Of a DNA stretch of 64,000 nucleotides, positions 27,945 to 58,614 are shown piece by piece. A program made the translations under genes and the position numbers. The notes beneath the pieces are model-generated. The model was not told where the DNA came from. It was given only the letters and a program-made list of their open reading frames with translations, and did not search any database. Every line of letters begins with the position of its first letter. Position 1 is the first letter of the stretch. Source of the DNA: Paecilomyces variotii (lineage: Eukaryota); the NCBI GenBank assembly GCA_004022145.1, contig RCNU01000007.1. One strand, 5' to 3'.

Positions 27945-27993
27945 AGATAAAGAGGATAAAGAGGATAAAGAGGATAAAAAAGATAAAAAAGAG
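27945..27993 (+). repeat. 9-bp repeat gataaagag, probably a relic acidic (DEE) tract; counterpart at 48675-48712
   Basis: Four to five direct 9-bp units. Confidence 0.8.
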
Positions 27994-30898: not shown

Positions 30899-31118
30899 GC
30901 TAGTACTGCTATAACTAGTATTATTATAGCTAGTACTACTATAGCTAGTACTACTACTATAGCTAGTACTGCTAGCGTAGCTAGTGCTGCTAGTATAACT
31001 AATATTACTAGTATAGCTAGTGCTATTAATATAGCTAGTACTACTATAGCTAGTGCTATTAATATAGCTAATACTATTAATATAGCTAGTACTGCTATAG
31101 CTAATACTGCTAGTATAG
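30899..31118. repeat. 15/18-bp minisatellite gctagtrctrct(agt)ata; counterpart at 51619-51838
   Basis: About 13 units with lengths in multiples of 3. Possibly an Ala/Pro- or Ala/Gly-rich coding tract before RIP. Confidence 0.85.
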
Positions 31119-32989: not shown

Positions 32990-34146
32990 AAAGTTTCAGA
33001 TTACTTAATTTTAGATTAATAAATAACCGACTAATATAAATTTTTAACTACTAAATTTCTAACTACTAAATTTCCTATTACTAGACTAGACTAAGTTTTA
33101 GATTAATAAATAATCGACTAATATAAATTTTTAACTACTAAATTTCTAACTATTAAATTTCTTACTATTAAATTAAACTAAGTTTTAGATTAATAAATAA
33201 CTAACTAATATAAATTTTCGACTACTAAATTTCTAACTACTAAATTTCCTATTATTAAACTAGACTTAGTTTTAAATTAATAAATAATTAACTAATATAA
33301 ATTTTCGACTATTAAATTTCTAACTACTAAATTTCTTATTATTAGACTAAACTAAGTTTTAGATTAATAAATAACTAACTAATATAAATTTTTAACTACT
33401 AAATTTCTAACTACTAAATTTCTTATTATTAAACTAAACTAAGTTTTAGATTAATAAATAACTAATTAATATAAATTTTTAACTACTAAATTTCTAACTA
33501 CTAAATTTCTTATTATTAGATTAGACTAAGTTTTAAATTAATAAATAATTAACTAATATAAATTTTTAACTATTAAATTTCTAATTACTAAATTTCTTAC
33601 TACTAGACTAGACTAAGTTTTAAATTAATAAATAACCGACTAATATAAATTTTTAACTATTGAATTTCTAACTACTAAATTTCCTACTATTAAACTAGAC
33701 TAAGTTTTAGATTAATAAATAACTAACTAATATAAATTTTTAACTACCGAATTTCTAATTACTAAATTTCTTACTACTAGACTAGACTAAGTTTTAGATT
33801 AATAAATAACTAACTAATATAAATTTTCGACTACTAAATTTTTTACTACTAGATTAGACTAAGTTTCGGATTAATAAATAACCGACTAATATACTATTAG
33901 ACTAGACTAAGTTTTAGATTAATAAATAACCGACTAATATAAATTTTCGATTACTGAATTTCTAACTACTAAATTTCTTACTATTAGACTAGACTAAGTT
34001 TTAGATTAATAAATAACTAACTAATATAAATTTTTAATTACTAAATTTCCTACTACTAGATTAAATTAAGTTTTAGATTAATAAATAACCGACTAATATA
34101 AATTTTTAACTACTGAATTTTTAACTACTAAATTTTTTACTAGTAG
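32990..34146. repeat. 87-bp subterminal array, 14 units (some shortened)
   Basis: Period measured from 33091 to 33178. Shortened units near 33790-33905 and 33995-34068. Confidence 0.95.
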
Positions 34147-35284
34147 TATTATAGCGCTAAATAGGTATTATAATAGCTATAAGATAGATTAAAGCTATAA
34201 GAAGAAATAGTAGAGTAAAACTACTAGTAGAATTATTAACTGCCTGCTATATTAAGAAGGGATTAAGAAATAAAAGATTTTAAAAATAAAAGTATTTAGA
34301 TTTTTACCTTAAATTCTTCTTCCTTTTTTTCTCTAGCTTAAAGTTCTCTATTATACTGCCTTACTAGGTTAAATCTTTAATAAATTTAATTTAGTTTACT
34401 TAAGTATAATATTACTTTAAGCTTATTCTACTTATCTTATTTTATTTCTTAAGCTTTCTGTTTAAGTATATTATACTGCCTAAAAAGCCTACCTATTATT
34501 TAATAAAATATTAGACCTCTAAATTAAATTCTTGCTATAGCGAAGCCTATTAATAAATCTAATTATTATTAGGATAACTCTAAAAATAGAGGTAAATAGC
34601 CTAAATAAGAACCTATAAAAGATATTTATTATATCTTATACTACTGGGATAATAGGCTAAAAAATATAATATTAGATAAGTTCTATAAAAAGCTGAAAGC
34701 AGACCTTATAAAAATCTAGAGAATCTAGTATTTTACTATTAATTTCCTCTAAAATAAAATTTATAAATTAGAGAATATTAAGCATTTAAATAATTATAAT
34801 ATTAAATATAAAAATAATAATAATAATCTTGCCCGCTAGCTTTACTAGGAGAAATATTATATTAAAGATATTAAATAGTAAGTTATAGAACTTATCTGTA
34901 ACTAAGAAGAATATAAGAAGGCTCTTATTAATATAGCTCTTTATCTTAATTATAAAAGTACTTTAAGACTTATAGGCGATTAGCCCCGGCGCTCTATTAA
35001 ACTACTTAATTTTCCCCTGCTTATTAATAGAAAAGACCCTAAATTTAAAAACTAGTTGTTATAGATTAAAAATAAGCTTAAGATAAATACTAATTATTAT
35101 AGAAGTAAATATCTCTATATTATATATATCTAAAGCTGCCTAAGTAGAAAAGCTATAATATATATATTTTCTAAATTTTATAAAAATTTTAGTCTCTCTT
35201 TTTAAATAGCTAATAAAATCTTTAATTATCTTTAAGCTGTTTTCTATAACCTAAACTATTATTAAAATATAAAGCGCTATAATA
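34147..35284 (+). mobile_element. 1138-bp LTR-like + gag cassette (copy 2)
   Basis: tattatagcgct ... agcgctataata form a perfect 12-bp inverted repeat. Gag motif from about 34990. Confidence 0.8.
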
Positions 35285-38200
35285 ATTAGATTAAATTAAG
35301 TTTTAAATTAATAAATAACTAAGTAATATAAATTTTTAATTATTAAATTTTTAATTAAATAGAAGTTCTAAACTAATATATAGCCTAGAGGCTTTAGCCC
35401 TATATTATCTATTACTAGGATAACTAGTCTAAATATCTTATAATAGTTAACTTTACAGCAGCTATATTAACCTAAGAATCTATAAGTATATCTCTAATAA
35501 TAGTTAAATACTAATATAAGTTATAAATCTTCTTTAATTATAGCCTAATATTATAATCTAGCAGTCTACTATTATAAGATTTATTAGTTAAAAATAATTT
35601 AATAGTTAAAAATTTATATTATTTAATAATTTATTAATCTAAAATTTAATATCTTACTAGATAAGGCTTAATAAACCTTACTAAAATTCTTGCCTAAATA
35701 TTAACCTCTTATATCTCTACTAAATTAGGTTAAATCTAGATAGAAATTAATTTATTTTATATGTCTAATTCGACTCTATAATATATTAAAAATTTAGCTT
35801 AATTCGACTTTATTTTACTAAGATATAAGGGGATAAAGTTTTATTATTAAAAAATCCGAAATAAGAAGCGGCACTAGCCTATTTCAATTTTTCTACTATA
35901 GCTTACTAATCGAGGCAAAATCTTTAAACCTTAATAACTTACGCTACAGTGGACCAATCTAAAAAAGGAATATATATTTATAATCCTTAGAACGAGCTCT
36001 ATCGATTAGTATATAGAACAATATTAAATTCTTAAAGGGGAAGTTTACTTATATACGTAATTTTGCCTTATAGAATCTCTATAAAGCAGTATATATAATA
36101 GAACCTAGTCCTTTATCTAAGATAAACTTAGGGGTCGAAGTTAGGAGAATTATAAATAGCTTAGCTAAAGAAGCATTATTTTTTAGAGAAGATTTAGGTA
36201 TTCTAGGAAAGGCTTTAATTCTTTAATTTATATGCCTCTATATATACTGCTATAAGGGAGAGAAGTTTCTAGAGTATAATATATTAGAGAATAAAGTATT
36301 AAATTAGCTAGCTATTAATATAAAGGAAAGCCTTCTCTAGAAAATTCTCTAGAAAATTTATTTAGTTAATATTACTATAGAATATTTTATAGCAATAAGA
36401 TTAAAGAGTATAAATTCTAATTATATATATCCTGGTCTAGTTACTAATACCCCTAGTAAATAAATTAATATACTCTGCTTAATTATTCTTCCAGCGTCTT
36501 AATATAAAGACTTTCTTAACTCTCTTTTAAATCTTACTAGCTGAATTAGAAGACTCTGCTAAATATCTTAATTTACTAAATATTATCGCTTATTATATTT
36601 TTCCCGCCCTTTACTATTATAATAGCTAGCTATTATATAATAGCAGTATATTAGTAGCTAAGAAGGAGGAGTTACCGCTCTTTATTTAAATAAAGGAATT
36701 TTAATAGGTATATACTAATATATTAACCTATTTTATATTAACCTTTAATTAGATTAATCTATTAGAGGTTAACTACTTCCTTAAGAAAAATAAGAATACT
36801 TATAGCTTTAAGCTACTAGACTAGGAACCTGCGAGTTATAAATATCTAGATAAAAATAGTTAGTAAAAGCTATATCTGGCCAATACTAAGACTAAGGAAG
36901 ATAAGCTAAGTATTAAAATATTCTATTATATTTGAGAATTTATTGCTAATAGTATTAAGCTTATACTTATTACTAAGATCTTTATGGCCTTAGTTTATAA
37001 GCAGGATATAGTAGTATTTATTTACCTAGAGGAGGGGTTACCCTAAAAGAAGAAAGAATCTAGGGGATATTAGAGAAATTATAATATTAATTTCTGCGTA
37101 TAATAAAGAGGCGTAGTTAAGATTTTATAGTTAAGAATTTATATTAAATCTATTCTATTATACTATACCTCCTATATATATATTTTCTCCTTATTAAGCG
37201 CTAATAGGTATATATAATAAGATCTTTACCCTTCTATTTAGCTAATCTCTTTCTTTTAAAAAATATAGTCTTTATATAAGAATATAGTCTTTCGCAAATT
37301 TACTAATAAGGTAAAGATATTATATAGACTAAATTGCCTTAAGAAGATATACTTTATTATATATATTATATAGCTTAAGCAGTCTGCTAATAGAAACTAG
37401 TTTAGTATATTTAGTAAAAGGTTAGTTAATAATTAATAGCTATAAGGTATTGACAAGATATTATATATATAAGACTAATTAAGACTAAAGTAAATATAGC
37501 ACTATATATTTAGGGAGATATATATAAAGAGTATATATTAATAATAGAATCTAATATTATTTAGCTTATTAAGGATTAAAGTATTTTAGGTATAGCTAAG
37601 GCTTTTATTAGAGCTAAGCTACTATTCTCCTATTTGTTTTAGATCTAGTTTTAGCTTAGACAGTAAGATTTCTAATTATATTATAAGCTAAGAGACCTTT
37701 AATAATAGCTATAGACTTACTGCTAAACTAGTAAAATATTTTTTTCTCTTAGTCTATATAATAGAAAATGTTATAGTCTAGTAGTAATCTTAGCATTATC
37801 TCCTTCGCATTTTATTCTATAAGATCTAGAACTTTTATTTATAGTATATATTTTAATATTAAGATACTTAGGTTAGGATACTAAGCTATTATACCTAAGA
37901 TACTACTAGCTAAAATACTTAGCTTAGTAAAATTAAGATTATAGGTTATAGTATATTTATACCTATAGGCAAGAATATGTTAAGGTATTTAATATAGGAA
38001 ATAAACTTAATTAAATAGTGTATAGATTATAAAATTAATAGTTTATAATTCTATTAGCTGCAATAAGTTAAAAGTATAAAGTAGAATATATCTCTAATTA
38101 TATATAGATAGGCCCTATATTTATATTATTTAAAGATAATTAATATTATAATTATATAAAAGCAGCAAATAGCTTTTAAGTCTCTTAATTATTCTTTAAG

Positions 38201-39889
38201 TAAGGCTTATAAAAAATACCTATAAGTATTAAATTTAATAGGGTTGCGAGGGCTTTAATATTATAATTATATATAGTATTACTGCCCTATTAACCTAATA
38301 AGGCAATCTGGTATTATTTAAACTTAGAGGATAAGGTTAACTATTCTAGCAGATACTGCTTTAAGGTTAATACATATAGATAGTATTAAGATATTATTAA
38401 GTAGGTTATTTAGTTATTATAGAATAGCTTTAATATAATTTAAATATACTTAGCTAGTTATCTACTTAGCTCTCTTACTAAATATTTTCTCTTTTTCCCT
38501 ATTTTATTATTAATTAAATTATTAATAACTAAAATAGACTCTATATAGAGCTTTACTTTTAGTATTAAGTCTTAGAGGCTCTAGAGTGTATAGAGAGTTA
38601 AAAAGACTTAGGTATATTATAGCTAATATAGAGGACTAAATATAAGCTAATTACTTTAATATAAGCGCTTATATAAGGGGGAAAACTAGACTAGAGTCTT
38701 TTAATTTTAATTATATAATAAATAATAAAACTATTATCTTTATTATACAGTATAATATATAGAGATCTTATTACTCTAGGATTATTTATTCTAGCCTTAT
38801 TTTTAAGTTTACCCTTAATAGGATATAACTAATAGGATTCTGCTTATATAGTATTAGATTACTTTGCAATTTATTTATTCTCTATACTTAATCGCGCCTT
38901 ATAGCTTAAGGTCCTATATAATATCTTATATTATTCCCTTTTATTAATAATAGTATATCTTAAACTTAGCTTACTCTTCGGTTCTAATATTAAATAATAC
39001 TTATTTATTTATTAGAAGCTTCTATTTATATAAAGTAATACTATATTGCCTATTAGGAATATTAAACAGGGTATTAAATAGTTTATTAACTCTTAAATAC
39101 TATAGTTTATATATATTTTCTTTATATACTCCTTTCTCTTCTTATTTAGGCTTTCTTTTATTATATTAGCTATAATACTTCGCTGTCTATATTCTTAATA
39201 AATATGTTAATATTCTTATATAAATAATTAGCTATCTTCTATTATATTTTTCTTATAGTATATAAGATTTATTTAACTTATCTCTAAATTGCCTTTTTAT
39301 AATTTAAAGATATAGCTTATCTCCTAATAAAATACTGTTAAATATTAAATTAAGATTTTCTTTCTTTTTAAAAATATAAGACTATTAGAGAAGTCTATAT
39401 ATAAAAGTAATAGTTAGTAGAATTAAGGTTAGAGAATATTAGATTTACTTTTTTAGCTTTATCTTTAAGTTTTATATCTTATCTTTAATATTAATATTTA
39501 TTCTTATTTAATAGATTCTAGGCTTTAGTAAATATTTTTAGTCGGTTTTTTATATTTTTATTTAATAACTTCTATATTTAAGGAATAACTCTAATATGCG
39601 CTATATCTTTTCTTATTCCTATTGTTTTTTAATTGCCCGGTAATAATAATATAGATAATTATATTAAGCAGGCAATATTTATATTCTGTATTTAAATTTA
39701 TTAATAACTGCTTACTTATTATTATTATAGTTAGGATTATAATAGATTAATATATTACTTTTATTACTGCTTATTTTAGAGTCTTTAATAGGGGAGTTAT
39801 TAGTATTAAAGTTAGTATAATCTAAATCCTTTATAGTTATAATAACTTTATCTTAATCTTATTATTTAAGAGCTAAGGGTAATTATAAG

Positions 39890-40670
39890 TATAATAAGGA
39901 TTAGATCTCTTAGCCTAGCTAATATAACTCTAAGTATTAAATATTTTTACTTAGCTAATATAACTCTAAGTATTAAATATCTTTACTTAGCTAATGTAAC
40001 TTTAAGCATTAAATATTTTTACCTGGCTAATATAACTCTAAGTATTAGATTTCTTAGCCTAGCTAATATAACTCTAAGTATTAAATATCTTAGCTTAGCT
40101 AACCTAATTTTAAGTATAATAAGAATTAGATTTCTTAGCCTAGCTAATATAACTTTAAGTATTAGATATTTTTACTTAGCTAATATAACTCTAAGTATTA
40201 AATATTTTAGCCTAGTTAACTTAACTCTAAGTATAATAAGAGTTAGATCTCTTAGCCTAGCTAATATAATTCTAAGTATTAAATATTTTTACTTAGCTAA
40301 TATAACTCTAAGCATTAAATATCTTAGCTTAGCTAATATAACTCTAAGTATTAGATATCTTTACTTAGCTAATATAATTCTAAGTATTAGATATTCTTAC
40401 TTAATTAATATAACTCTAAGTATTAAATCTCTTAGCTTAGCTAATATAACTCTAAATATAATAAGGATTAAATCTCTTAGCCTAGCTAATATAACTCTAA
40501 GTATTAGATATTTTTACTTAGCTGATATAACTCTAAGTATTAAATATCTTTACTTAGCCGATATAATTCTAAGTATTAGATATCTTAACCTAGCTAACTT
40601 AATTCTAAGTATAATAAGAGTTAAATCTTACCTAGCCGATCTAACTATAAGTATAAAAAAGATTAAATAT
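39890..40670. repeat. 36-bp tandem array with 45-bp variants, about 20 units
   Basis: Unit tagctaatataactctaagtattaaatatttttact. Variants carry a 9-bp insert. Confidence 0.95.
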
Positions 40671-41094
40671 TTTAACTAGATTTATTAAAGTAGGAGTTAA
40701 TAGAATATAAAGAGATTAAAATTTTTTTAAAATATATTAGTTAATTTGCTAGATTAGTTTTATTATTAGTTTATATTAGGAGAAAGCTAAAATTTTAATA
40801 GATAACCTCTTATTAGGCAATAATTAATCTTTATAATTATAAGAAATGCTAGCTTATATATTATTTACCTTAAATATTAATTAAGCCTTATTAAAAGCCC
40901 TATTTTAAACTAGTTCTATTTAAGAAAGTTGCTTTTATTAGTCTTTAGTAAGAAGGTCTTTTATTTAATCTAAATTACTATTACAATTAATTAATATCTT
41001 AAGTAAGATAATTATATCTATATTAGGGAATTTAAACTTTAGAATTATAAGTTTTATATTAATAAGCCTTTTATTAGAGATATTATTAGTATAT

Positions 41095-41735
41095 ATATCT
41101 TTATAATTTAAAGATTATACTAGCAATTATTAAATAGGGCTGCTTTAATAGCTATTATTAAAAGAGGTCCGCAGTTTACTCTTATAAGGTAATTAGCTAT
41201 TTTAATATAACTTAATAGTAGAAGAAATAGATAGAAGATTATATTAAATAGACTAATTATAATTTAATAATAATAGTAACTTTTAAATAGAACTTATTTA
41301 ATAGTTATTAATAGATAGTATCTATATATTATTTATATAGGGCAATTTAGTATTTTAAAGTAACTTAATTATATAAGAAATTAACAGAAGACTAGATTAA
41401 ACAGCTTAACTATAATTTAATTGCGCTAGTAATATTAGAAGAGGATAGCTTTAACTAGTAGTATTATAAAAGGTTTAGATATTACTCTTACTAGGCGATT
41501 TCTTATTTTAGATTAATTTAATCACTTAAGAAATTAATAAGAGGTTATATTAATTAGACTAGTTGTAATTTAATAGCACTAATAATTCTTAAATATAGCT
41601 GCTTTAATAGTTGCTACTAGAAGGTATTTGTCTATTACTTATATAGGCTAATTTATTATATTAAAGTAACCTAGTTATAGAAGAGATAAATAAAGGACTA
41701 GATTAAATAAGCTAGTTGCAATTTAACAGCGATAT
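41095..41735. repeat. Diverged 153-156 bp repeat, 4-5 units
   Basis: The anchor t(a/g)(t/c)aattta occurs at 41102, 41258, 41411, 41564 and 41717 with shared flanking motifs. Confidence 0.7.
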
Positions 41736-43899
41736 AGGTCTTAAATCTAAATATATATTCTTATCTAGTTATTCTATAGATAAGGCTTTTTTTATTTATT
41801 TTAGAGTTTAAAATATATATCTTTCTTTTAACTATAAATATATTAGAATATTCTCTTAGGTTAGTAATAGGCTTATTTTATAAGGATATTTATTTTAGGT
41901 ATATCTTTATACCCCTATAATATCTGGAAGTATCTAATTATTTATAGATATATTATATACCTAAATAATCTATTAGCTATATAAGAGGGCTATAATTAAT
42001 AGTAATATATATTTCTCTATTTATATTAGTATATATAATACTAAAGTTGCTTTTACCTTTCCTTTTTTAAATTAATTTTAGGATTATATTATATTATCTA
42101 TATTCTAGATATTTAAGGTCTAAGCAAGATTTAATAATATATTATATAGCAGCCTTAATTAAAGTAGCTAAATATATACTTATAAAGCTTATATCTTCGG
42201 CGATTTTTTAATAAAAAATACTTCCTTTTTAATAATAATACTAGCGGTAAGGACTATTAAACTAGTATAAGATAATACTAGCTAAGCTAAAATAGGATTA
42301 AAGCTAATAGCTATATTAGATAAGTTATAAAATATTTTACTCTATATTTCTCTATTAGAATTCTTACTAATAAAAGTTTAGTCCTTCTGCTAATAATACC
42401 TGAATAAAGATATATAGTATATTATAATTTAATATCCTAATAACCCGCAGATAAACCTAGAATTATTAATCTTAGCTTATTATAAACTCTCCTAGTAACC
42501 TATTAATAATATAAATCCTATACTTAATATAAAACACTAATTATAATAATCTTTACTAAGAGAATTTAATCTAGTAGTACTGCGCAGATAGGCAGGTTAA
42601 AGGCCTAAATATTATAGAAGATTATTAGTATAAATATAAAGATTAATAATAAGTTAACTGGGCTATAGAAGATAGCTAAGGGAGATTATTAAATAGGATA
42701 AAACTGTTAGAATTAAACTCGCAATAGATTATAAATAGAAGAAAATACCTAGTAAACTAAGGATTATTATTATTATAAAGAACTTTCCCCTTTTTATAAA
42801 TTATTATATCTTAAATAGTCTAGAATATCTTTTTAGAGAGGACTCTTTAATAACAGTATTAATAATAGCTTTAGTAAAGATATAAAGACCTAGGCTTTAA
42901 AATTAATTATAAAGAGGTATAGCAATCTCTTAGTATTACCTTAACTAGCTATTTTATTTTTTAAATACTGCTCTCCTATTTATCCTATAATCTTTTAATA
43001 TTAAAAATTTAATATAATATCTTATAGAAGATATAGATAATTTATAAAATATAGGAATAAGGATAAATAGAATAAGGCTTAAAAAGAAAAATATAGATTA
43101 AAATACTAGCAGCAATAATAAGAATAAGAGTATAATTAAAATTAGTCTTTTATATTATTATTAGTATTATTTACTTATACTTGCTTTAAATCTTATATAC
43201 TTATATAGGATATATAATAGAATCTTAATAACTCTCTTTTATTAATCTATATTAATAATAATATCTTTAATAATCTTAGCAGAGCGCTATAGAATATGTT
43301 TTTATTTTTTAGGCATATAGAATATAGAGAAGAAGATAATACTTAAGATTTTAGGCTATTTAATTTTAATAATAGTTAAGAGAATAAATATAATAACCTT
43401 AATACTAATAATAATAATGCGGATAATAGCTATAATATGCCTATATAAATATTAGATAATAATATACTAATAGTAATTAATAATTAATAGAATTTATTCT
43501 ATAAGTTTCTAAATAAGCTAGATATAGCAGATATTAGATAAAGGATATTAATATTAATATAGTAATAGATAAGCTATTACCTAGCTTAATAAATATCCTT
43601 AAAGCTAAAGAAGAAGTTTTTAAAGATAATAGCTATTATATATTTATAAAATAGTTAATAGAATAATTTATATAATATTATAGCTATTTATCTTATATAT
43701 AAATATTATCTATACCTAAAGACAGTAATAGTAGCCTAATATTACTTTTATAAGTTATATAATTAGTATTATATAATATTCTTTCTTAGAAAGGTATTTA
43801 AAAATATTTAAAAGGCTATAATTAAAATATTATTTTTCCCCTATTTTAATAATAGTAGCTTTTTAGCAGAATCTAGACTATATTTATTAGTAATTATTA

Positions 43900-46400
43900 A
43901 TTACCTGCAGATATTATATCGAGTAGTAAGCTTACTAAGGATTTTCCTTTATATTATTAAGATCGTCCGCCCCTATATATTAACCTAGAATAAGATATAA
44001 TAATGCTTAAAAAACTATTTATTATCTCTTTTAATATTAATAGTACTATTAGATTTATAAATAATTTAGCTGTAGCCTATTAAGGACTTTATTAGATAAT
44101 AGTTAAGTTATCTATTAGTAGTCTAAAATAGTCGCTTTATTTTAATCTAATCCTAATAACCTTTTATAACTTAAAGACTAGTATCTTTTATTATATATAT
44201 AGTTTAATCTATTAAATCTTATACTTTTCTATAGGCCAACTAGATAAATTTCTAGATATAAAACTATTTATTATTTTCCCTAACTTTTATACTCTAAATT
44301 ATAATAATTAGATTATTTTAAACAGTAAATATAGAATCTAAATAAATAAAATATTTATACTAGCTCTTTATAAAGCTTGCCCAGAATTAATTATATAATA
44401 CTTACCTGCTAGTATAGAATATATTTAACTTTAAGATATAGTATACTTAGTAGAAGGGTATTGCTAAAAAACTTAATATTTATATATCTAATTATTGTAC
44501 TCTGCTCTTTAAAATAATAAGCTATTTAGCTTATAATAGTATATTCTTGCTAGAATCTATAAAAGATCTCTAATTATATTTAGGGGGCTAAAGTTGTTAT
44601 TAATAGCTAAAAATCTAAAGATATATATATAAGATAGCACTTAGACTAAAGCACTTAGCAGATTCTTTAAATTATAGATATATATAATTAATTAATAATA
44701 CCTAAAAAAAGAATACTATAATATTAAAAAAGAAGTTATTATAACTAATTAAAGCTATAATTTTATTACTAATAATATAAAGATAATAAAATATCTATTT
44801 ACTTTATTATAGCGCTATTATTATTAAGAGAGCTTCTTTATTTAGCTTTAAGAGGTTTTAAATAAGCTTATCTTATATTAAGAAGGTAACTGCGTAAAAT
44901 TAGATTATAATATAATGCCTTCCTCTAATATCTAAAAGCAATATTTAAGGCTATAGATTATAATCTATATTTAATAATAATTATTATCTAAGAATAATAA
45001 TAATTATAATTAAGATAATTAATATATAATTACTAATAATAATAATTAAAATAAGACTATTAATAATAATAATAGTTATTATAAAAGATCTAAACTAAAT
45101 AGTCTTAATTTTAACTTTTTAAGGCAATTATTACTAGAAGATAACGCCTCTATAATAGCTAAAATATTAAGAAATAATAGAAATAAGAATATAAGGCATA
45201 AACTATCTTAGAGGTTAGAGTTTTATTATAAAATATTTTTGCAGAATATAGGAAGTTTAATAATTAAACCCTATCTCTATTTTATTTTATAAGCTAATAA
45301 GCTATATTATTATTAGTTTTATAATTTCTTTAAGAAAGTCTTTATAGTAGGTAATTAGTATCTATTTATTAATTATATATTAGATATACTAGCTTTAAAT
45401 CGCAGCTTAATTTATATATAAGAATATATTAGCTGTGCGATTAATTATAATCTTATAGCTCTTCTCTAAGTATACTATTACTTTAAAAAGTATTATTATA
45501 TAGTAATTTAATATTACTAAAAGCGCTTATATAGCACTTAAGAGGAGTTTTATATTATTAGGACCTTATTCTATGCTATTAATTGCAAAATATAAATAAT
45601 TAATATAGCTTAAGAATATTTAAAGCTCTTATTACCTGTATTAATATTATCTGATTTATTATTATTAAATTATCTACTTCTATTTTTTATCTATTATATA
45701 GTTAATATCCTAGGTTTATATTAATAGAATATAAATTGCCTTTATTTAGGGTTTAAATTAGTTTATAATTTACGGCCCTATATATTAGTATATTAAGAAT
45801 ATAGCCGCATAATAATAATATTTCTTTTATATCTCCTTTATATATTTAAGGGCTAAGGGAATTATATCTCCTAATATAATAGTCTTTAGTTAAATTATTA
45901 TATTTAGCCTTTAAGAGAAGGCATAAACTAAGAATAGGTCTATAAGGGCCTAGGTATAGGGGAGATACTTAAATACTATAGTTTTATATAGTTTCTAGAT
46001 AAGTTTAATTAAATAGCTATAATATTTTAACCTCCCTATTAAATAGTTATAACCTTTTTTAATATATCTTTAATAATATTAGTATATTATTAGTTCTATA
46101 AAGAAGTAAAAGGGGTATAATTAGATTATATTATAGTCTATAATATCTTTACCTACATATTTAAGGTCCGGGCAGATTTTATATACTTAGCCTTACTTCT
46201 AAATCTATTAATAAATATATATCTTTAAGTATTTAAAAAGGATGCCTTTAAGATAATAAAAAATATTATTAAGTGTTAAGAAATACTAGATAATAAGAAA
46301 ATAGAAGAGGCTTATAATAGCAATGTTTTATTAATTTTATATAGATTATATTTATTATTTAAAGATATTAACCTATTAGTATTTATATATATAATAACTA
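43900..46400 (+). pseudogene. RIP-destroyed long ORF of an uncharacterised fungal protein family (core ORF of element Z); ends approximate
   Basis: The codons at 44024 and 45242 are in phase. De-RIP gives ISFDIDSTIGF..LAVARQGLYW, HQIPHFSIGQL, QHLPAS, LLLTAKNLK, YDIGKEV, TLLWRRCC, QFYNSSKEVFAAGNQYPFTN.ALDTLALD, SYGTREEFR, WNIN.LCLGFELV and EGLGM...YGFAWFLDKFDW. Confidence 0.75.
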
Positions 46401-49400
46401 ACTTAAAGTGCAGAATCTATAATATTAAGGTTTTATTTAATTTTCTCTAAGGATAAAAAGCTAGTAAAGATAATTAAAAATTAAAGCAAGAGTATTAAAA
46501 TAAGAAACTATATTATATTCTCTATAAATAATATAGTATTATAATTATAGAGATCTATAAGTTTAATTAGGCGCAGTAATAGTAAGTAATACTTAAATAC
46601 TGCTTTATTTATTTATATTAAGTGCTGCTATTTCTTAATAGTTAAATATTCTAGCCTAAATATTAGTCTAAAAAATTAATAATATAGATAACTACTTATA
46701 GAGATCTATTTAGCTATTATAAGTATTAAAGAGATAGATAATTTAAAGAAAGAGCTAAGAATATTAAAGCTATAGTTAATAATCTATTCCTTCTAATAAT
46801 TATATCTTATAATATGCTTTATCTCCTAATAACTAAATAGATACCTAGTAAATATTTAATAGAATTATAAGTATAATTGCCTCCTTTATTAATTAATCTT
46901 AATACTTATTTTAATATTATTAGCAATTCTATTTTTATTAGTCCTATTCCTTTTCCTTTTATTAATATATTAAATAGGCTAATTATAAGATAGCTCTTTA
47001 AAAATACTTTTTCTTAATAATAATTTAAGTTATTTATAAGAAAGAACTATTTAAGAAATTAGGATAAAGTTTATATAAAAGTAGAGTAGCTTATTAATAA
47101 GTTGCTTAAGATTATAAATAAGCAAAGAATAGTTATATAGAAGGATATTTATATATTCTATTCTTATATAAATAAAGCTTTGCCTTTAAAGAAATAGAAA
47201 TAGTTAGCTAATAATAATATTATAGATTCTTCTATTATAAATATAAATCTTAAAGGAGATTTTAATTTAAAAAGCCTTAAGTAAAGGTTAGCTTATATAA
47301 TAGTAAAGCAGTAATACTATTATATAAAGTCTTATATAATTAAGATTATAACAGATTTATATAATAAAAACCTTAATAAGCTAATAGAGTACTAAAAGAG
47401 TTTTAAATAGATTAAATAATCTAGAGATAAGTATAAGCTGTATAAAGTATATAAGATATATAAGATAAAGAAATAAAGAGGTAAGGAGCTAAAATAGTAA
47501 CTTAATAAATTATTAAAATAGATTTATAATAGCTAGAATAAATAGAATAAGATAGTTAATAGAGATTTTATAATATTAGAAAGTTCTTATAGAAAGAAGT
47601 CTTTACTTATTTTTAAATTTTTAGGGAACTTATTATTTATAAAGAGCTTAAGAATTAAATATTAGTTAATATACTTGCTAAAAAATATAGGTAAAAATAC
47701 TTATCTTACTATTAGACCCTAGTTAAATAGCTTTATATAATCTAGATATAATCTTATTAAGGATACTCTCTTAGAGATATAACTAAGTAAGAAGAGTAGT
47801 TATTTCTTATATATATATAATACTATTTCTTATTATTTTTTAGTAATATATTAATATTTTAATATTTTATCTCTGTTACTTCTATTATTATATAAGATAT
47901 TACTTAATTAAAAAAAAGACTAAGTAATAAGAAGATTATAGGAAGAAATACTAATTCTAATAGAATCTATTAAAACTATAAATATATTATATAGTATAGA
48001 TTAAAAACTTTTCTAAATAGCCTATAATTAGAAGAAATAAACTATTCTATAAGGAAAGAGTATTTAACTAAAATATTATTTATAAAACTAGACTTTTCTA
48101 TTATATAAATAAAGTAGTATTTTTAGGGCTTAGGTAGTATTTAGGGAGCTATTTTACCTAGAGTACTTCTTATCTTCTTATTAATAATATCTATATATTC
48201 TAGTAGTATTTTATATAATTAAGGGAGGTAGATTCTAGAGTAATATTCTAAGATTATATTAAAATTAATAAGGAGCTTAATAATATTTAAGATATATTAG
48301 TCGGCTTTTTCTTAGATTAGCTTATTATAAACTATTCTTATATAGGTTATAAGTTTTTATATATAGAATAGGGGTTTAAAAGGCGCACTATAATAGGCTA
48401 TAGGCTAGGAGAAGAAAAACTGCTAAATTATATATAAACTTTATTAAACTATATTTATTCTTACTTAAGACTTATAATATTATTTTTATTATAATAGGCA
48501 ATAATAACTATAATAGAAGAGGCTATTTTAGAACTAGAGATAACTGCTTAATTTAATAATTATATAAAAAAAAAAGTTTATTTTAATATTTAGGTCCCGC
48601 GTAAGAATTAGTATTATATTACTTAAGTTTTTAAGGTCTTTAAACTAAGAGGAGGTATAGATATAATAGGGCCAGATAAAGAGGATAAAGAGGATAAAAA
48701 GGATAAAGAAGAGGGGTTAATAGAGGGAATATAATTACTAGCAATTTATTAATAGAATAATACTTTAATACTCCCTTAACCTTAAAAGATTAGTTTTTTT
48801 ATTCTAATTAGGCAAATAAAGATATAGGATAAGCTTATTTAATTAAATATATACGCGCTTAATTATAAAGCGCTTATTAAGTACTCTAATACTATTAAGA
48901 TTATTTAATAATTAAATTAAGTAAAGTAAGCTGGTAAATAATATTAAGCTTAGTTAATAGGTAATAGAGTAGGTCCTAACTTTAAATGTATTAAGCCTTT
49001 ATATACTAATTAGGTTCTTATATAGATACTTAGATATTTACCTAATAAATATTAAAAAGCTTATTAACTTAGATAATATAGCTATAACTAATAGATTACT
49101 AGATATATATTTATTTAAATAGGTATATAGTCTGATAGCAGAAGAAATAAATAAGGAATTAAATATTTAATCTGTATAAAAAGCTTAATAGGTAAGAAAT
49201 AAAATGAGATAATTTAATAGACTCTTATTCCTATATAGTTTAATAATTTTAAAAAAAATATAATAAGAAGAAATCTTTAAAAGGAATATTTTATTTAATA
49301 GAGCTATTCTTAGCTATAAGTTTATATATAGGCTTAAAGACTTCTGCTAGTTTATTACTATTAAAGTATTTTATAATACTTTCTTCCTCTTTATTTAAAA

Positions 49401-52400
49401 ATAGAGGCAGTCCCTAAAACTAGCTGAGTATATTTACTATATATAAAATATTATAATTAATAAAGTAGGATAGCTATAGCAATTCTAATTTTAAAAAAGA
49501 GCTAATAAGATATTTAAGAGTATTAAGGCAATTAGGTGCTAAGGAAACTAAATATAATATATTTTCTAAAGAATATCTATCTCCGCTAATAGGTCCTCTA
49601 TAGACTATAAAGAAAAATATTAAACCTCCTAGTTAATAGCTATAAACTAAGTAAATATAATATAAATATTTATATTTTTAGTTATTATACCTAACTATAC
49701 TAGTTTAATATACCTATTTAACTAATAAGAGAAGCTAGAGGTTAATAGGTCTAAGATATTTTAATATTTATATCTATAGGAGGTATATATAACTATATTA
49801 GCTTAATATATATTTTAAGCTAATAAAAGGACCTAAATAATAGTAAGTTTAAAAAGTTTTAATTTATAATTTTATCCTAATCTAATAATTTAATTATAGT
49901 AAACTAAATTCTAATCTTTATACTATAAAGGAAAGAATAGGAGAAATAGTATTATTATATAGAGGCGGGGAAATAATACTCTTATATAAGGATAAAGGGG
50001 AAAGAATAAGATATTAGATTATATAGCTTCTATAGGGGGCAAGCTATAAACTTACTATATTTTATTATTATATTCTCTATATAAACTAAATAGCAGCTAT
50101 AATAGGATATTACCTATATTAACCTATATAAAATTAATAAAGATAAAAGAAGAACTATAAATCAGTTTAATTAAATATTTAGCTTAGCTTAGAATAGCTA
50201 AGGCATTTAAATAAAGTTAAAGAATATAAATAGCTAGTAGATTTTAGTATTAATTAATTTTTTAAGCAATCTAGTAATTATTACCTTTTTATATACTTTC
50301 TCAAAATCTTTAATTCTATAGTCCTAGATCTTTATAAAAGGTTAGCAGCTTATAAGGGGGGGAAGAGATAAAGGAATAAGGGGCCCGAGAAGAACTATAT
50401 AAATATATATATCTTATATAAACCTTTAAAAAATATTTAAAGAGTATTAAATAGCGAAGTAATTATAGTCTAACCTTATTAATTTTATAATTTATAAGAT
50501 TCTATCTATTTTATTAATAAATATATATTTTTTTTAATATTTAAATATTAAAATATTAATTAGTTTTTATTAATATTCTTATTATTTATATTTAAGCTAC
50601 TTTACTTAATAAGCCGCTCTGCTTAGTAATTAAGCCGCTTTACTTAATAAGCTATTCTGCTTAATAAGCCGCTCTGCTTAATAAGCCGCTCTGCTTAATA
50701 TAATTCTCTGCTAACTAAGTTATCTCTTAAGCTTTTTGGCGATTATTAAATCGGTTTTATTTAACTACTTACTATACTACTAAAAAAGCCTAAATTATCT
50801 AGAGATTTAATTAAGTAAGAGGAGAGAGTTCTACTAGCAATTTATAATTTAAATAAAAATTAAATTCTATCTATATAAAAAGTAGTATTAACTTTTAAAG
50901 TTCTCTATTTAATACTTTAAATATAACTATAAGGGCGTTAGTTTCGCAATAATATATAAAATAATATAATTATATTGTCTAAATTATAGGAGGAATTGCT
51001 TATATAATAAATATTATCTATAGATTAATATAGAGCAAGTTTTTAACTTATCTAGGTTTAAGAAGTAATAAGTCTTCTTATAGATTAAGATAGCAAGGTT
51101 TTAGCTAGGCAAGAATTAAGTATTTATTTTTATTAGGTATCTTATAGCTAAAGAGGGATAGGCTATAGGAAATTATTAAGCACTATTAATTAAGCTAAGT
51201 AAGATATATAGCCTAATATCTAATTTAAAGATTTAGTATATATCTTAAAATAGTAGACTATATAAATACCGCCTCTAAACCCCCTAGCTAGGCGCGTTAT
51301 ATATAAGATAATAGGATAAAACCTATTATATAATCTAAACCGGTAGTCTAGTAGTATTTATGCTAAATCTCTGCCTTTTATATATAGGGAGATAATAATT
51401 AGCCTAAATCTATAAGACCTTAACCCTATAATTTTAAACTATTTAAAATTAATCTTTAGGTCAGATTATCTTTTTTTATATTTAAGTATATTATATTATA
51501 TATAAAACATATAGAAACATATTAATTTAAAAGAGGGGATAGACTAAAAAAAGAAAAAAAGATAAAATTTAAAGCTAGATTTAAATTAATAACCTTTTTA
51601 TTTTAAAACTGCCCTGCGGCTAGTATTACTATAGCTAGTGCTATTATAGCTAGTACTATTATAGCTAATACTGCTATTATAGCTAGTATTACTAATATAA
51701 CTAGTACTACTAGTATAGCCGGTATTATTAATATAATTAGTGCTATTAATATAGCCAGTACTGCTATAGCTAGTATTATTAGTATAACTAGTATTATTAA
51801 TATAGCTAGTGCTATTATAGCTAATACTACTAATATAAGTATAATAAAGCAGAGGAATAGAGGAGCTAATAGAATAAAAGAGCTATATAAGTATAATAAA
51901 GTAAAGAAGCTAGCCTTTACTTTCTTAATAGGCGTAGGACTGTTTAAAGCAATCTTAGAGGCCTCCTTATAGCTATGCTTCTAGGGAGTTTAAGAAACTT
52001 AGATAGAAACTAAGAGGAGCAAAAAAGCTAATAAAATAAAAGAGCTAATAAAATAAAGGAGTAAAGAAACTAATAAAGTAGAGAAGCAGTTTTAGACCCT
52101 CTCTTATAGCTATGCTTAAGAGAAGTTTAAGAGATTTAGATAGAAACTAAAAGGAGTAAAAAAGCTAAAATCTCTATATTTATTAGATTTATAAAGCCTA
52201 AGATTAAAGAATCTTAAAATAAGCTAATAATATAGATATTAGCCTTAGAATAACTTATATAGCAAGTAGGAATATATCTATTTAATATAGCTAGCTTATC
52301 TCTAGGTCTAGTATATCGCCCTAATCTCTCTTTTTTAATATCTAAGCTATTAAGCTATTAGAGAAGCTAATAGAGTAAAGAAGCAATAATAAAATAAAGA

Positions 52401-53876
52401 AGTAATAATAAAATAAAAGAGCAGGTCTATTAAAATAATTAATAAGCTATAAAGGAATTAGCTAGGCGCCCTAATAAATTAGGCCTAAGCTATTAAGTTA
52501 GCAATAGCTAATAGAGAACTAATAGTATAGCCTATTATAGGCTCCTAGCAGGTTAATAATAATCGCCCTTATAAATAATATATTTATTTTTATATAGATC
52601 TTAATAATTTAAATTAGGGGCTATTACTCTAAGTAGCCCCCGGCTATAAAATCTATAAAGGAAATAATATATAATAATAAAAAAAGTAAAGTATAGCGGG
52701 GCCTATAGGTAGGTAGGCTTGCTACTATATTAAGAGAAGAAAAAAGAAGAAGAAGAGAAGATAAGGATAGAAGCACTTTTTTATACTTAATAAGTAGAAT
52801 ATAAATCCCCTCCCTGCTATAAATTTAAGGGGGAAAAAATATAATTACTCTCTAGGTAAATATAAATAGGAAGAATTTTAAATAGGAAGAAATATAAAGT
52901 AAGGGTAATAAATAATAGCAGTTATTAATAGTAGGAGAAGGCCTAATAATAATAGAAAGATAATAAAGGAATATAGAAATATAAAGCTATAATAGAAGAT
53001 AAGAAGAGGGAGAAGAGATAGAGAATTTAGTATAAGAACGGCTAGAGTATAGCATTATAATTAATATTTTAAATAAATTAATAAGAAGCTAGTATTTTAA
53101 ATAGAAAAAAATACTCTAAAAGCAAGCTTTTATAATAATTAAAAATAATAAGCTTTAATTAGCTTATTTAGATATTAAATAAACTCTTAATAAAATATTC
53201 TATATCTTGCTAATTATTACTATCCTCTCTATTATTATTTATAGCCTCTAATTCCTTTATATATAATATTATAGTATCTAGGATATTAGAAGAAGAGATT
53301 AGAGGGGTAAAAGGGACTATATAAATAATCTAAGTATATAAACTATAGATTAGCACAAGAAGAAGCTATAGGATATTTACTTATATATTAGGACCTTTAA
53401 CAGTCTATATTAACTCTCTGTAGGTCTCTAGAATTACCTAGCCTATATTAAAGTTTTAGATAATTAAACAGTACCTTAAATAAGATATTAGAGAGTATTT
53501 ATATATAGGAGATAATTATATAGTTTAAACTCTTTATAAACTCTAGATAAGAGAGATTTAATATAGCCTAGTCCAGTATTATATCCTGAGATTTATATAT
53601 ACTAATAGTATATGCTATTATAATAGAGAACTGGGTCTGTTAATAATTAATATAGTTATAAATAAACTCCCAGTAAGATTAAAGGATAGAGATAATTAGA
53701 TAGCTATTATTATCTTAGCAGAGATATAGTCTTTAATTATTATTAAAGTAGACTAAAAGAGCTAATAGCAGATCTTGCTAATAATTATTGTCCTAAATCT
53801 ATATAATATTAAAAAGCATATTAAAGGAGCTATTTACTAACTTTTACTCTACTTAGATATTTTTTTTAGCATAATA

Positions 53877-54144
53877 AAGTTTTAGATTACTTAGTTTTAG
53901 ATTAATAAATAACTAACTAATATAAATTTTTAACTACTAAATTTCTAACTACTAAATTTTTTATTACTAGACTAAACTAAGTTTTAGATTAATAAATAAC
54001 TAACTAATATAAATTTTTAACTACTAAATTTCTAACTACTAAATTTCCTATTATTAGATTAGACTAAGTTTTAAATTAATAAATAACTAACTAATATAAA
54101 TTTTCAACTACTAAATTTCTAATTACTAAATTTCTTACTAGTAA
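53877..54144. repeat. 87-bp subterminal array, 3 units
   Basis: Units at about 53892, 53979 and 54066. Confidence 0.95.
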
Positions 54145-55282
54145 TATTATAGTACTAAATAGGTATTGCAATAGCTATAAGATAGATTAGAGCTATAAGA
54201 GGAGATAGTAGAGTAAAACTACCAATAAAACTATTAATTACTTACTATATTAAGAAAAAATTAAGAAATAAAGGATTTTAAAGATAAAAGTATTTAGATT
54301 TTTACCCTAAATTCTTTTTTCTTTTCTTCTTTAGCTTAAAGTTCTCTATTATATTGCCTTACTAGGTTAGATCTTTAATAAATTTGATTTAATTTGCTTA
54401 AGCATAATATTATTTTAAGCTTATTCTACTTATCTTATTTTATTTCTTAGGCTTCTTATCTAAGTATATTATATTACCTAAGAAGCCTATTTATTACTTA
54501 ATAAAATATTAAACCCTTAAATTAAATCCTTGCTATAATAAAGCCTATTAATAAATCTAATTATTATTAAGATAATTCTAAAGATAGAGATAAATAGCCT
54601 AAATAAAAACCTGTAAAAGATACTTATTATATCTTATACTACTGGGATAATAGGCTAGAGAATATAATATTAAATAAGTTCTATAAGAAGCTAAAAGCAG
54701 ACCCTATAAAAATCTAGAAAATCTAATATTTTATTATTAATTTCCTCTAGAATAAAATTTATAAATTAAAGAATATTAAGCATTTAAATAATTATAATAT
54801 TAAATATAAAGATAATAATAATAACCTTGCCTGCTAGCTTTATTAGAAGAAATATTATATTAAAAATATTAAACAATAAGTTATAGAATTTATTTATAAT
54901 TAAGAAAAATATAAGGAGACTCTTATTAATATAGCCCTTTATCTTAATTATAAAAGCACCTTAGAACCTATAGGTAATTAGCCTTAGCGCTTTATTAAAT
55001 TACTTAATCCTCTCTTGCTTATTAATAGAAAAGACCCTAAATTTAAAGATTAGCTATTATAGATTAAGAATAAGCTTAAAGTAAATACTAACTATTATAG
55101 AAGTAAATATCTCTATATTATATATATTTAAAACTGCCTAAGTAGAAAAGCTATAGTATATATATCTCTTAAATTTTATAAAGATTCTAGCCTCTCCTTT
55201 TAAACAGCTAATAAGATCTTTAACTATCTTTAAGCTATTTTTTATAACTTAAATTATTATTAGAATATAAAGTATTATAATA
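54145..55282 (+). mobile_element. 1138-bp LTR-like + gag cassette (copy 3)
   Basis: Colinear with the other copies. The ends are more heavily RIP-ed. Confidence 0.78.
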
Positions 55283-56686
55283 ATTAGATTAAATTAAGTT
55301 TTAGATTAATAAATAATTAAATAATATAAATTTTTAATTATTAAATTTTTAATTAGATAGAAGTTCTAAACTAATATATAGCCTAGAGGCTCTAGCTCTA
55401 TATTATCTATTATTAGAATAACTGGTCTAAATATTTTATAATAGTTGACTTTATAGCAGCTATATTAACCTAAGAATTTATAGATATATCTCTAGTAATA
55501 GTTAAATGCCGATATAAGTTATAGATCTCCTTTAATTATAGCTTAATATTATAATCTAGCAGTCTGCTATTATAAGATTTATTAGTTAGAAATAATTTAA
55601 TAGTCGAAAATTTATATTATTCAGTAATTTATTAATCTAAAATTTAGTATCTTATTAAATAAGGCTTAGTAAACTTTATTAAAATTCTTGCCCAAATATT
55701 AACTCCCTATATCTCTACTAAATTAGGTTAAATCTGGATAGAAATTAATTTATTTTATATATTTAATTCGACTCTATAACATATTAAAAATTTAGCTTAA
55801 TCTGACTTTATTTTACTAAGATATAAGGGGATAAAGTTTTATTATTGAAAAATCCGAAATAAGAAGCGGCGCTAGCCTATTTTGATTTTTCTACTATGGC
55901 TTACTAATTGAGGTAAAATCTTTAAACCTTAATAACTTATGCTATAGTGGACCAATTTAAAAAAGGAATATATATTTATAATTCTTAGAATAAGCTCTAT
56001 TAATTAGTATATAGAACAATATTAAATTCTTAAAGGGGAAGTTTACTTATATATGTAATTTTGCCTTATAGATAGTATTATAATATCTAGAATATTAAAA
56101 GGAGAGATTAAAGAGGTAAAAAAGACTATATAAATAACTTAAGCATATAAACTATAAGTTAATATAGGAAGAAGCTATAGAATACTTACTTATATATTAA
56201 GATCTTTAATAGTCTATATTAACCCTCCGCAGGTCCCTAGAACTACTTAACTTATATTAAAGTTTTAGATAATTAAACAGTATTTTAAATAAGATACTAA
56301 AGAGTATTTATATATAAGAGATAGCTATATAATTTAAACTCTTTATAAACTCTAAATAGGAGAGATTTAATATAGCCCGGTCTAGTATTATACTCTAAGA
56401 TTTATATATACTAATAGTATATGCTATTATAATAAGGAACTAAGTCTATTAGTAATTAATATAGTTATAAGTAAACTCTTAGCAAGATTAAAGAATAGAG
56501 ATAATTAAATAGCTATTATTATCTTAGCAGAGATATAGCTTCTAATTATTATTAAAATAGATTAAAAGAGCTAGTAGTAGATCTTACTAATAATTATTAC
56601 CCTAGACCTATATAATATTAAAAAATATATTAAAGAAGCTATTTACTAACTCTTACTTTACCTAGATATTTTTCTTTAGTATAATA

Positions 56687-57476
56687 AAGTTTCGGATTAC
56701 TTAGTTTTAGATTAATAAATAACTAACTAATATAAATTTCTAATTACTAAATTTCTAACTATTAAATTTCTTACTATTAAACTAGATTAAGTTTTAAATT
56801 AATAAATAACTGACTAATATAAATTTTTAATTACTAAATTTCTAATTACTAAATTTTTTATTATTAAACTAGACTAAGTTTTAAATTAATAAATAATTAA
56901 CTAATATAAATTTTTAACTATTAAATTTCTAACTACTAAATTTCCTATTATTAGACTAGACTAAGTTTTAGATTAATAAATAACTAACTAATATAAATTT
57001 TTAACTATTAAATTTCTAACTATTAAATTTCTTATTACTAGACTAGATTAAGTTTTAGATTAATAAATAACTAACTAATATAAATTTTTAATTACTGAAT
57101 TTTTAACTATTAAATTTTTTATTATTAAATTAAACTAAGTTTTAAATTAATAAATAACTAACTAATATAAATTGTTAACTACTAAATTTCTAATTACTAA
57201 ATTTCTTACTACTAGACTAAATTAAGTTTTAAATTAATAAATAATTAATTAATATAAATTTTCAACTACTAAATTTTTAACTATTAAATTTCTTATTACT
57301 AGATTAAACTAAGTTTTAGATTAATAAATAACTAACTAATATAAATTTTTAACTACTAAATTTCTAACTATTAAATTTCTTATTACTAGACTAGACTAAG
57401 TTTTAGATTAATAAATAACTAACTAATATAAATTTTCAACTATTAAATTTCTAACTACTAAATTTCTTACTAATAA
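56687..57476. repeat. 87-bp subterminal array, 9 units
   Basis: Units every 87 bp from about 56702 to 57398. Confidence 0.95.
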
Positions 57477-58614
57477 TATTATAGCGCTAAATAAGTATTA
57501 TAATAACTATAAGATAGATTAGAGTTATAAAAGGAGATAGCGAAGTAAAACTACTAGTAGAACTATTAACTGCCTGCTATATTAAGAAGAGATTAAGAAA
57601 TAAAGAATTTTAAAGATAAAAGTATTTAGATTTTTACCTTAAATTTTTCTTCTTTTTTTTCTCTAGCTTAAAGTTCTTTATTATACTGTCTTACTAGATT
57701 AAATCTTTAATAAATTTAATTTAGTTTACTTAAGCATAATATTATTTTAAGCTTATTCTACCTATCTTATTTTATTTCCTAGGCTTTTTATTTAAATATA
57801 TTATACTATTTAAGAAGCCTATTTACTACTTAATAAAATATTAAATTTTTAAATTAGATCCTTATTATAGTAAAGCCTATTAATAAATCTAATTATTATT
57901 AAGATAATTCTAAAGATAGAGATAAATAGCCTAAATAAGAATCTATAAAAGATACTTATTATATCTTATATTATTAGGATAATAGGCTAAAGAATATAAT
58001 ATTAGATAAGTTCTATAAAAAGCTAAAAGCAGACCCTATAGAAATCTAGAGAATCTAATATTTTATTATTAATTTCCTCTAGAATAAAATTTATAAATTA
58101 AAGAATATTAAGTATTTAAATAATTATAATATTAAATATAAAGATAATAATAATAATCTTGCCCGCCAGCTTTACTAGGAGAAATATTATATTAAAGATA
58201 TTAAATAATAAGTTATAGAACTTATTTATAATTAAAAAGAATATAAGAAGGCTTTTATTAATATAGCCCTTTATCTTAGTTATAAAAATACTCTAGGATT
58301 TATAAATAATTAGCCCTAGTACTCTATTAAATTACTTAATTCTTCCCTGCTTATTAATAGAAAGAATTTTAAATTTAAAGATTAGCTATTATAGATTAAG
58401 AATAAGCTTAAGATAAATACTAACTATTATAGAAGTAAATATCTCTATATTATATATATTTAAAGCCGCCTAAATAGAAAAGCTATAATATATATATTTC
58501 TTAGATTTTATAAAGATTTTAGCCTCCCTTTTTAAATAGCTAATAAAATCTTTAATTATCTTTAAGCTATTTTCTATAACTTAAACTATTATTAGAATAT
58601 AAAGCGCTATAATA
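57477..58614 (+). mobile_element. 1138-bp LTR-like + gag cassette (copy 4)
   Basis: tattatagcgct ... agcgctataata. Gag motif from about 58320. Confidence 0.8.

Follow-up and report, generated by a model that had tools for sequence, protein, structure and literature searches.

The window analysed here, a 64-kb stretch of contig RCNU01000007.1 of Paecilomyces variotii (assembly GCA_004022145.1), has a G+C content of 15-26% and carries on its plus strand a pseudogene degraded by repeat-induced point mutation (RIP), named X here, whose aligned core lies at 43,967-47,125. The original prediction had described at 43,900-46,400 a long reading frame with TAA and TAG codons at plausible glutamine, tryptophan or arginine positions, and had proposed its product as a candidate mobilisation enzyme, or equally possibly cargo, of a multi-copy, sharply terminated "element Z". 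Stop density alone distinguishes this frame only modestly (101 stops in the 1,133 codons of 43,501-46,900, versus 128-171 in the other five frames), and the decisive test was homology. Using as phmmer query the translation of 43,904-46,480 with the letter X at each of its 67 stops (P0001), we obtained 129 matches at E<=1e-3 among 1.84 billion representative proteins, 65 of them at E<=1e-10 and 19 at E<=1e-30, with a 1,217-residue hypothetical protein of P. variotii (P0002) at the top (E 2e-154, 39% identity); the frame is therefore real, far beyond chance. Residues 158-1,156 of P0002 align by tblastn to 43,967-47,125 in a single frame (E 2.5e-103), so the X open reading frame (ORF), although located where it had been predicted, extends about 700 bases past the end first assigned to it. 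It is readable from about 43,904 and, judged by the length of P0002, is expected to end near 47,300. The 88 in-frame stops of the aligned core comprise 61 TAA, 27 TAG and no TGA codons, and 64 of them face glutamine (30), tryptophan (22) or arginine (12) in P0002, as had been supposed; the majority residues among nine homologues at these positions are likewise tryptophan (24), glutamine (23) and arginine (15). Lacking an open translatable frame, the window copy is a pseudogene member of its family, the dead, non-functional remnant of one long intronless gene.

Alignment of the family reveals, from the N to the C terminus, a variable N-terminus, a region d0, a domain d1, a variable linker rich in acidic residues and serine, a domain d2 and a C-terminal tail. 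Region d0 is a helical segment of about 90 residues with the motif HHGC..H..CPD, and its hidden Markov model (HMM) found no match upstream of 43,988 in the window, where the region is perhaps too degraded. Domain d1 (about 290 residues, mixed alpha/beta) was located at 43,988-44,776 with an HMM of 12 homologues (independent E-value (i-E) 1.8e-51), and the mostly helical d2 (about 490 residues) at 45,218-46,699 (i-E 6.8e-83), both on the plus strand; between them, at 44,777-45,217, lies the low-complexity, disordered linker, a gap-rich stretch of the alignment without HMM match, near the start of which the window retains a WRRCC remnant. The window copy belongs to the family on the strength of significant similarity over d1 and d2 in the same order. 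Eleven of the motifs listed in the original prediction can be recognised, altered by RIP, against P0002. Domain d1 carries FDIDS, whose D-x-D-S lies on a strand (FNINS in the window), PHLPxG, AKNLK, which is intact, and DIGKE (NIKKE in the window, DVAKE in P0002). Domain d2 contributes QFYN..KE.F, LALD, G.REE.R, WNIN..GFE, WEH, EGLG, FRKDVF, LWGW and PYP; GTREEFR appears in the window as STXEEFY, WNIN..GFE as XNIN..GFK and EGLG as KGLG. LLWRRCC was recovered through the family consensus only (TLxWRRCCL): it has no counterpart in P0002, and the window frame reads LLXRYYY, as judged by eye.

The RIP signature rests on the types of stop codon, the substitution spectrum, the excess of transitions and the dinucleotide indices. 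The commonest substitutions from P0002 to the window are T>I, H>Y, P>L, D>N, V>I and E>K, and the indices stand at 1.33-1.44 for TpA/ApT and 0.24-0.34 for (CpA+TpG)/(ApC+GpT). RIP targets duplicated DNA only, and the window contains a second, 5'-truncated copy of the X ORF on the plus strand at 25,341-26,348, equivalent to residues 804-1,140 of P0002 (tblastn E 2.4e-31). This copy sits at the start of a repeat, 25,352-31,208, that matches 46,081-51,928 (plus strand) at 89% identity in self-BLAST, the two differing by 631 transitions, a single transversion and 17 gap columns. The shared stretch comprises the final ~1.2 kb of the X ORF followed by ~4.6 kb of non-coding or undeciphered sequence, and only the final ~1 kb of the ORF, from 46,081 onward, is duplicated within the window. 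A RIP-aware comparison of the two copies lowered the stops in the X frame only from 23 to 20 and gave no help in finding ORFs downstream, and a scan of stop density in all frames was too noisy to nominate any.

Contig depth was taken from two contig runs, X1 (with the same organism label) and X3, in which summed contig depth does not equal copy number. In X1 this depth is ~1,100-1,300 over 40.7-46.4 kb and steps from 1,604 to 4,030 (~2.5-fold) at ~47,255, near where the X ORF is predicted to end. The stretch from there to ~51,200, in which no ORF or Pfam family was recognised, may be a separate repeat, more abundant than X. At 11 listed places in the ORF, one or two variant contigs besides the reference were present in X1 and 3-13 in X3. 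Their differences in X1 amount to 2,089 transitions versus 102 transversions, and P. variotii therefore holds several RIP-diverged versions of the X ORF. Raw-read runs from other strains (X11 and X12) gave thin, mostly partial cover (~12x and 2x versus ~47x expected) and are uninformative on copy number.

The family to which X belongs was recovered from P. variotii (for example KAJ9292425.1), Emmonsiellopsis, Blastomyces percursus, Histoplasma (NAm1), Penicillium atrosanguineum, Tuber indicum and at least ten species or formae of Fusarium, every named source being, by our own classification, a filamentous ascomycete; the remaining members are mostly unnamed metagenome or Logan proteins. The genes are intronless, and full-length-like members measure 922-1,481 residues, fused gene models excluded. 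Among 50 sequences, D141, D143 and S144 (FDIDS), P223, K337 (AKNLK) and D371 (DIGKE) are invariant, and K334 and E375 are conserved in at least 90%; in d2, R632, E634, R636, N690, N692, E713, H714, E762 and K781 are invariant in 12 sequences. The acidic residues singled out originally as possible catalytic sites are thus conserved: both aspartates of D-x-D-S and the aspartate of DIGKE without exception, the glutamate of DIGKE in at least 90% and, in REExR, E634 together with both arginines in all of 12 sequences. At the extreme N-terminus, 14 of 51 full-length-like members (counted with the regular expression [KR]GR[PK]) have a (K/R)RGRP(R/K)KY-type motif with a basic stretch behind it, and about four more show close variants when the printed N-termini are judged by eye. 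Pfam AT_hook matches 4 of 50 members weakly, and some fragments of the family carry the source annotation "AT hook DNA-binding motif". The AT-hook-like N-terminus and the invariant acidic and basic residues suggest a predicted DNA-binding enzyme.

As the original prediction had stated, these are ascomycete hypothetical proteins without an assigned function. Pfam recognised no family in the stop-read window peptide or in 16 of 17 homologues, the exception being an RVT_1 tail on the Blastomyces gene model P0012; among 50 members searched at E<=10 no family recurred save the weak AT_hook, and the precomputed Pfam labels, newer accessions included, were blank for 22 of 22 members. NCBIfam and PHROGs each returned nothing for five of five, a PDB sequence profile search produced only a chance-level match of 46 residues (E 0.07), and the ESM Atlas gave no usable match to the intact homologue P0035. 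AlphaFold2 models built from family alignments were confident for d0 plus d1 (predicted local distance difference test score (pLDDT) 79, predicted template modelling score (pTM) 0.79) and for d2 (pLDDT 85, pTM 0.82). In Foldseek neither model matched anything in the PDB at E<=1e-3, and a viral structure comparison of the d0-d1 model was likewise empty. Readings of the D-x-D motif by eye as an archaeo-eukaryotic primase (AEP), a nucleotidyltransferase, a PD-(D/E)xK nuclease or a Toprim domain were dropped for want of fold or profile support, and the RVT_1 tail of P0012 was set aside as part of a separate gypsy-type insertion. No proteins longer than 2,496 residues, which fused forms of X might have produced, were found, and a literature search found no description of the family, though supplements of papers on telomere-linked helicases (TLH) may show genes beside TLH. 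We conclude that the X family is uncharacterised and, in these searches, matches no described domain, in agreement with the original remark that no canonical transposase is recognisable.

A metagenome scan for X homologues gave 23 loci. Intact intronless ORFs of 1,129-1,320 codons are present at L002 (identical to L003), L005, L011, L017 and L020. The Histoplasma NAm1 assembly carries six X gene models on six contigs; two copies share 99.6% identity across 1,354 residues, one lying on a contig of 883 kb and the other on one of 3.66 Mb, and the Histoplasma fragments are 94.8-99.7% identical. In Fusarium redolens the same X protein is encoded at two loci. As had been anticipated, the family is multi-copy rather than a syntenic host gene kept as a single copy, and the near-identical copies of Histoplasma and Fusarium are, judging by their identity, the product of recent amplification. 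Neighbours mostly differ between loci. Among 21 neighbouring ORFs (within 10 kb), none encodes a recombinase, transposase or reverse transcriptase and 15 have no Pfam family; the other six encode ankyrin repeats (two), a major facilitator superfamily (MFS) protein, a SNF2 protein and OrsD + DEAD + Helicase_C proteins (two). Identical contigs aside, only L006 and L010 have neighbours in common: X is followed there by a minus-strand ORF of 600-690 residues and by a 1,600-residue TLH-type helicase (OrsD + DEAD + Helicase_C), a conserved block at 3,513-10,505 of L006 and 1,349-8,082 of L010. Relatives of the minus-strand ORF bear the precomputed label PF28402, and the family with this label is large (62 matches at E<=1e-5, mostly on short contigs). 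When the neighbour ORFs of the homologues and these 62 members were compared with the window by tblastn, nothing matched.

X is the sole long ORF on three complete contigs of 4.6-4.9 kb. Two of these, L007 (arrays at 1-120 and 4,680-4,817) and L008 (1-143 and 4,835-4,917), are 4.8-4.9 kb long with tandem arrays at both ends, and the cores of the array units, CCCTAG or TTAGGG-like, bring to mind telomere repeats that have degenerated. The original prediction had raised the question whether the homologues are flanked by arrays and by termini like those of element Z. Tandem arrays do lie within 1.2 kb of X at 7 of 12 distinct loci, array density elsewhere providing no baseline, but termini were not found. 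On two contigs palindromes recur in nearly every intergenic gap, TTTCGGCATGAGCGCATGCCGAAA at 1,910-14,537 of L005 (about nine sites) and AACAATTGTT-centred ones at 1,374-12,967 of L019 (at least ten sites); this recurrence suggests that the orphan ORFs of a multi-gene block have sites for regulation or recombination in common.

Of the readings considered, the likeliest, which we hold tentatively and rate somewhat short of an even chance, is that X is the element's own propagation protein, because it is intronless, recently amplified, patchy in distribution, compact and accompanied by few conserved partners, and because it combines an N-terminus of DNA-binding type with enzyme-like residues. 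X would then be the sole protein of a compact selfish unit, consisting of the ORF and ~1 kb flanks and often bordered by short tandem arrays, and would promote the DNA-level duplication of its own unit: its N-terminus may bind array DNA or DNA rich in A+T, and d1 and d2 may act on DNA through their conserved acidic and basic residues. Duplication might come about by true transposition, or else by recombination directed to sites at repeat arrays and chromosome ends, in some cases in company with a telomere-linked RecQ helicase.

Several observations weigh against this reading. Termini of an element Z around the X ORF could not be defined in the window, where 40,668-46,080, a stretch that takes in the first 2.2 kb of the ORF, occurs once and only the sequence from 46,081 onward recurs. 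The family is multi-copy, but a multi-copy, sharply terminated element was not confirmed in the window: the sharp boundary at 25,352 is the terminus of another repeat (repeat U, below) rather than of X. Neither terminal inverted repeats, long terminal repeats nor prefix-suffix overlaps were found at the X loci, the three complete contigs included, and target duplications and empty sites were found at none of them. The 3-4-fold contig depth in run X1 may stem from a few neighbouring copies. Divergent paralogues of X, ~21-24% identical, stand in tandem at L005 (3-1,898 and 3,033-6,866), and the Fusarium oxysporum gene models P0144/P0171 also hold two such paralogues in tandem, while a telomere-linked RecQ-type helicase adjoins X or is fused to it in the gene model in four homologues (L006, L010, P0151 and P0161). 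Given these tandem paralogues and adjoining helicases, passive recombination fits as well as transposition.

The subtelomeric route has to be considered because genes for telomere-linked RecQ helicases adjoin these four homologues. In this account X would have become multi-copy passively, by recombination or segmental duplication among chromosome ends, and would be a DNA- or chromatin-binding factor, not a mobilisation enzyme; we regard it as somewhat unlikely, yet as the strongest rival. The order common to L006 and L010 fits it, as do the two F. oxysporum gene models (2,210 and 2,460 residues) that fuse X to DEAD + Helicase_C, one of which its source calls "helicase tlh1", the tandem arrays flanking X with the CCCTAG and TTAGGG-like units of L007 and L008, and the tandem pairs of paralogues; the adjoining helicases, arrays and tandem paralogues agree with passive amplification about equally well. 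Yeast Y' elements are an analogue of such TLH subtelomeric blocks. X resembles the TLH regions in forming multi-copy, near-identical, RIP-prone blocks bordered by short tandem arrays, and in standing directly beside a TLH-type helicase on two metagenome contigs and in two Fusarium gene models, but X itself lacks a helicase domain and bears no similarity to the helicase ORFs, and most X loci, like the window, lack a helicase and telomere repeats. Against the passive account, of the nine distinct loci where 3 kb or more follows X, only two have a TLH-type helicase, and no helicase remnant was detected in the window, where tblastn of the four helicase-bearing proteins gave nothing outside the X part. 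Runs of at least two TTAGGG/CCCTAA units are absent from the window and the 23 loci, although RIP could have erased those of the window. An X-like ORF is not mentioned in the Results of the F. oxysporum TLH preprint (10.1101/2024.02.27.582403), nor in passages of the FoTeR paper (PMC12857005) and of a Botrytis preprint (10.1101/2022.03.07.483234).

To return to X as a propagation protein, a bolder form of this reading, which we consider unlikely, makes X the catalytic protein of a new class of mobile element, distinct from DDE transposases, tyrosine and serine recombinases, HUH enzymes and reverse transcriptases. Its AT-hook N-terminus would recognise the tandem arrays flanking the X gene, DNA would be cut and joined by D-x-D-S and DxGKE of d1 together with REExR, WNxN and WEH of d2, and X might work with the telomere-linked RecQ helicase in some lineages. 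With the single-ORF DNA transposons of fungi (DDE elements and Cryptons), X has in common one long ORF, compactness, multiple copies, patchy distribution, exposure to RIP and an N-terminal DNA-binding motif, in X a predicted one; it differs in lacking any DDE or tyrosine-recombinase match in Pfam or by fold, and neither terminal inverted repeats nor target duplications were found for it. For a DDE or RNase H-like fold, Pfam gave no hit, and the d0-d1 and d2 models had no Foldseek match at E<=1e-3 and none among the top fold rows. The R-H-R-Y signature of tyrosine recombinases and Cryptons found no Pfam or fold match, and the spacing of arginine, histidine and tyrosine in d2 is, by eye, a poor fit. 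Rolling-circle Rep proteins (Rep_trans, HUH and Helitron) use a conserved catalytic tyrosine; in d1, compared over 50 sequences, none of the positions that are invariant or conserved in at least 90% is a tyrosine.

Alternatively, X could be cargo, or an accessory gene, in some larger unit that is mobile or repeated, such as a giant element or the composite repeat of the window, with the mobilisation gene of that unit elsewhere; we judge this decidedly improbable. Both window copies do join X to ~4.6 kb of further repeat, the summed contig depth downstream is ~2.5 times that of X in run X1, and the metagenome contigs place X among numerous orphan ORFs (15 of the 21 neighbours without Pfam family). 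Set against this, neither the 21 neighbours nor six-frame Pfam scans of 46,900-53,401, which returned nothing at all, RIP lowering their sensitivity, revealed a recombinase, transposase or reverse transcriptase; the neighbours of X are not conserved, and X stands alone on the three complete contigs. Accessory genes of Starships, for example DUF3723, are large orphan fungal proteins, repeat-associated, multi-copy and patchy. X is like them in all these respects, but it matches no Pfam family, DUF3723 included, and none of the 21 ORFs that neighbour it within 10 kb encodes a DUF3435-type recombinase, Starships being far longer than the flanks covered.

That X is the first ORF of a non-long-terminal-repeat-like retroelement with mostly 5'-truncated copies is very improbable: in both contig runs summed contig depth climbs in the 5'-to-3' direction over 40.7-51.6 kb and the second window copy is 5'-truncated within the ORF, but the climb is stepwise, not smooth, the truncation point is the end of repeat U, no reverse transcriptase is found downstream in any frame (with sensitivity lowered by RIP) or beside intact homologues, and the sole link to one, the tail of P0012, matches a distinct gypsy-type relic at 15.1-15.3 kb.

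The window as a whole is a mosaic of tandem arrays and RIPped repeats. Self-BLAST shows four copies of repeat U (~3.2 kb), which contains an 87-bp tandem array. One, at 22,188-25,352, meets the second X copy with its conserved end and truncates it; the others lie at 32,442-36,075, 53,333-56,078 and 56,142-59,404. The four copies share a terminal ~30 bases (...TTTACTTATATACGTGATTTTGCCTTATAGA), beyond which the flanking sequences are unrelated to one another, and repeat U is therefore a discrete element that behaves like a mobile one; its minus-strand low-stop frame of 315 codons (e.g. 23,799-24,743) has no Pfam family. Repeat V (self-BLAST) has two copies of 85-88% identity at 37,187-40,668 and 60,451-63,964, with ~18-21 units of a 36-bp tandem array at the end of both, and the 1.1-kb spacers between U and V at two places are unrelated to each other. 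A model of the window as 21-kb tandem units was rejected, the spacers after repeat U being unrelated, with 41% identity equal to the control. Around the X ORF, Tandem Repeats Finder placed the 36-bp array of repeat V (39,886-40,660, ~18 units) 3.3 kb upstream, a 153-bp array (41,193-41,730, 3.5 units) 2.2 kb upstream and a 51/69-bp array (51,641-51,838) ~4.4 kb downstream; further arrays occupy 3,741-4,800 (period ~45 bp), 5,070-6,690 (~152 bp) and 21,461-22,084 (~39 bp). On the minus strand, 14,235-17,285 is a RIP-degraded Ty3/gypsy-type pol relic (Pfam RT_RNaseH_2, E 1.5e-11), to which the RVT_1 tail of P0012 aligns at 15,102-15,317.

X is a large, conserved two-domain protein annotated in many genomes merely as "hypothetical", and since confident models without a solved fold are available, it is a good target for structure determination. 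Should X prove a partner of telomere-linked helicases, it would be an undescribed component of fungal subtelomere biology; should it found a new class of mobile element and work with such a helicase, the TLH blocks would be parts of a mobile system and not passive subtelomeric repeats. If X does drive its own spread, it would represent a new enzyme class for eukaryotic mobile DNA, and its invariant residues and intact genes would provide an experimental handle on the orphan repeats of RIP-degraded, AT-rich compartments, a handle that would extend to fungal chromosome ends, including those of pathogens with accessory chromosomes.

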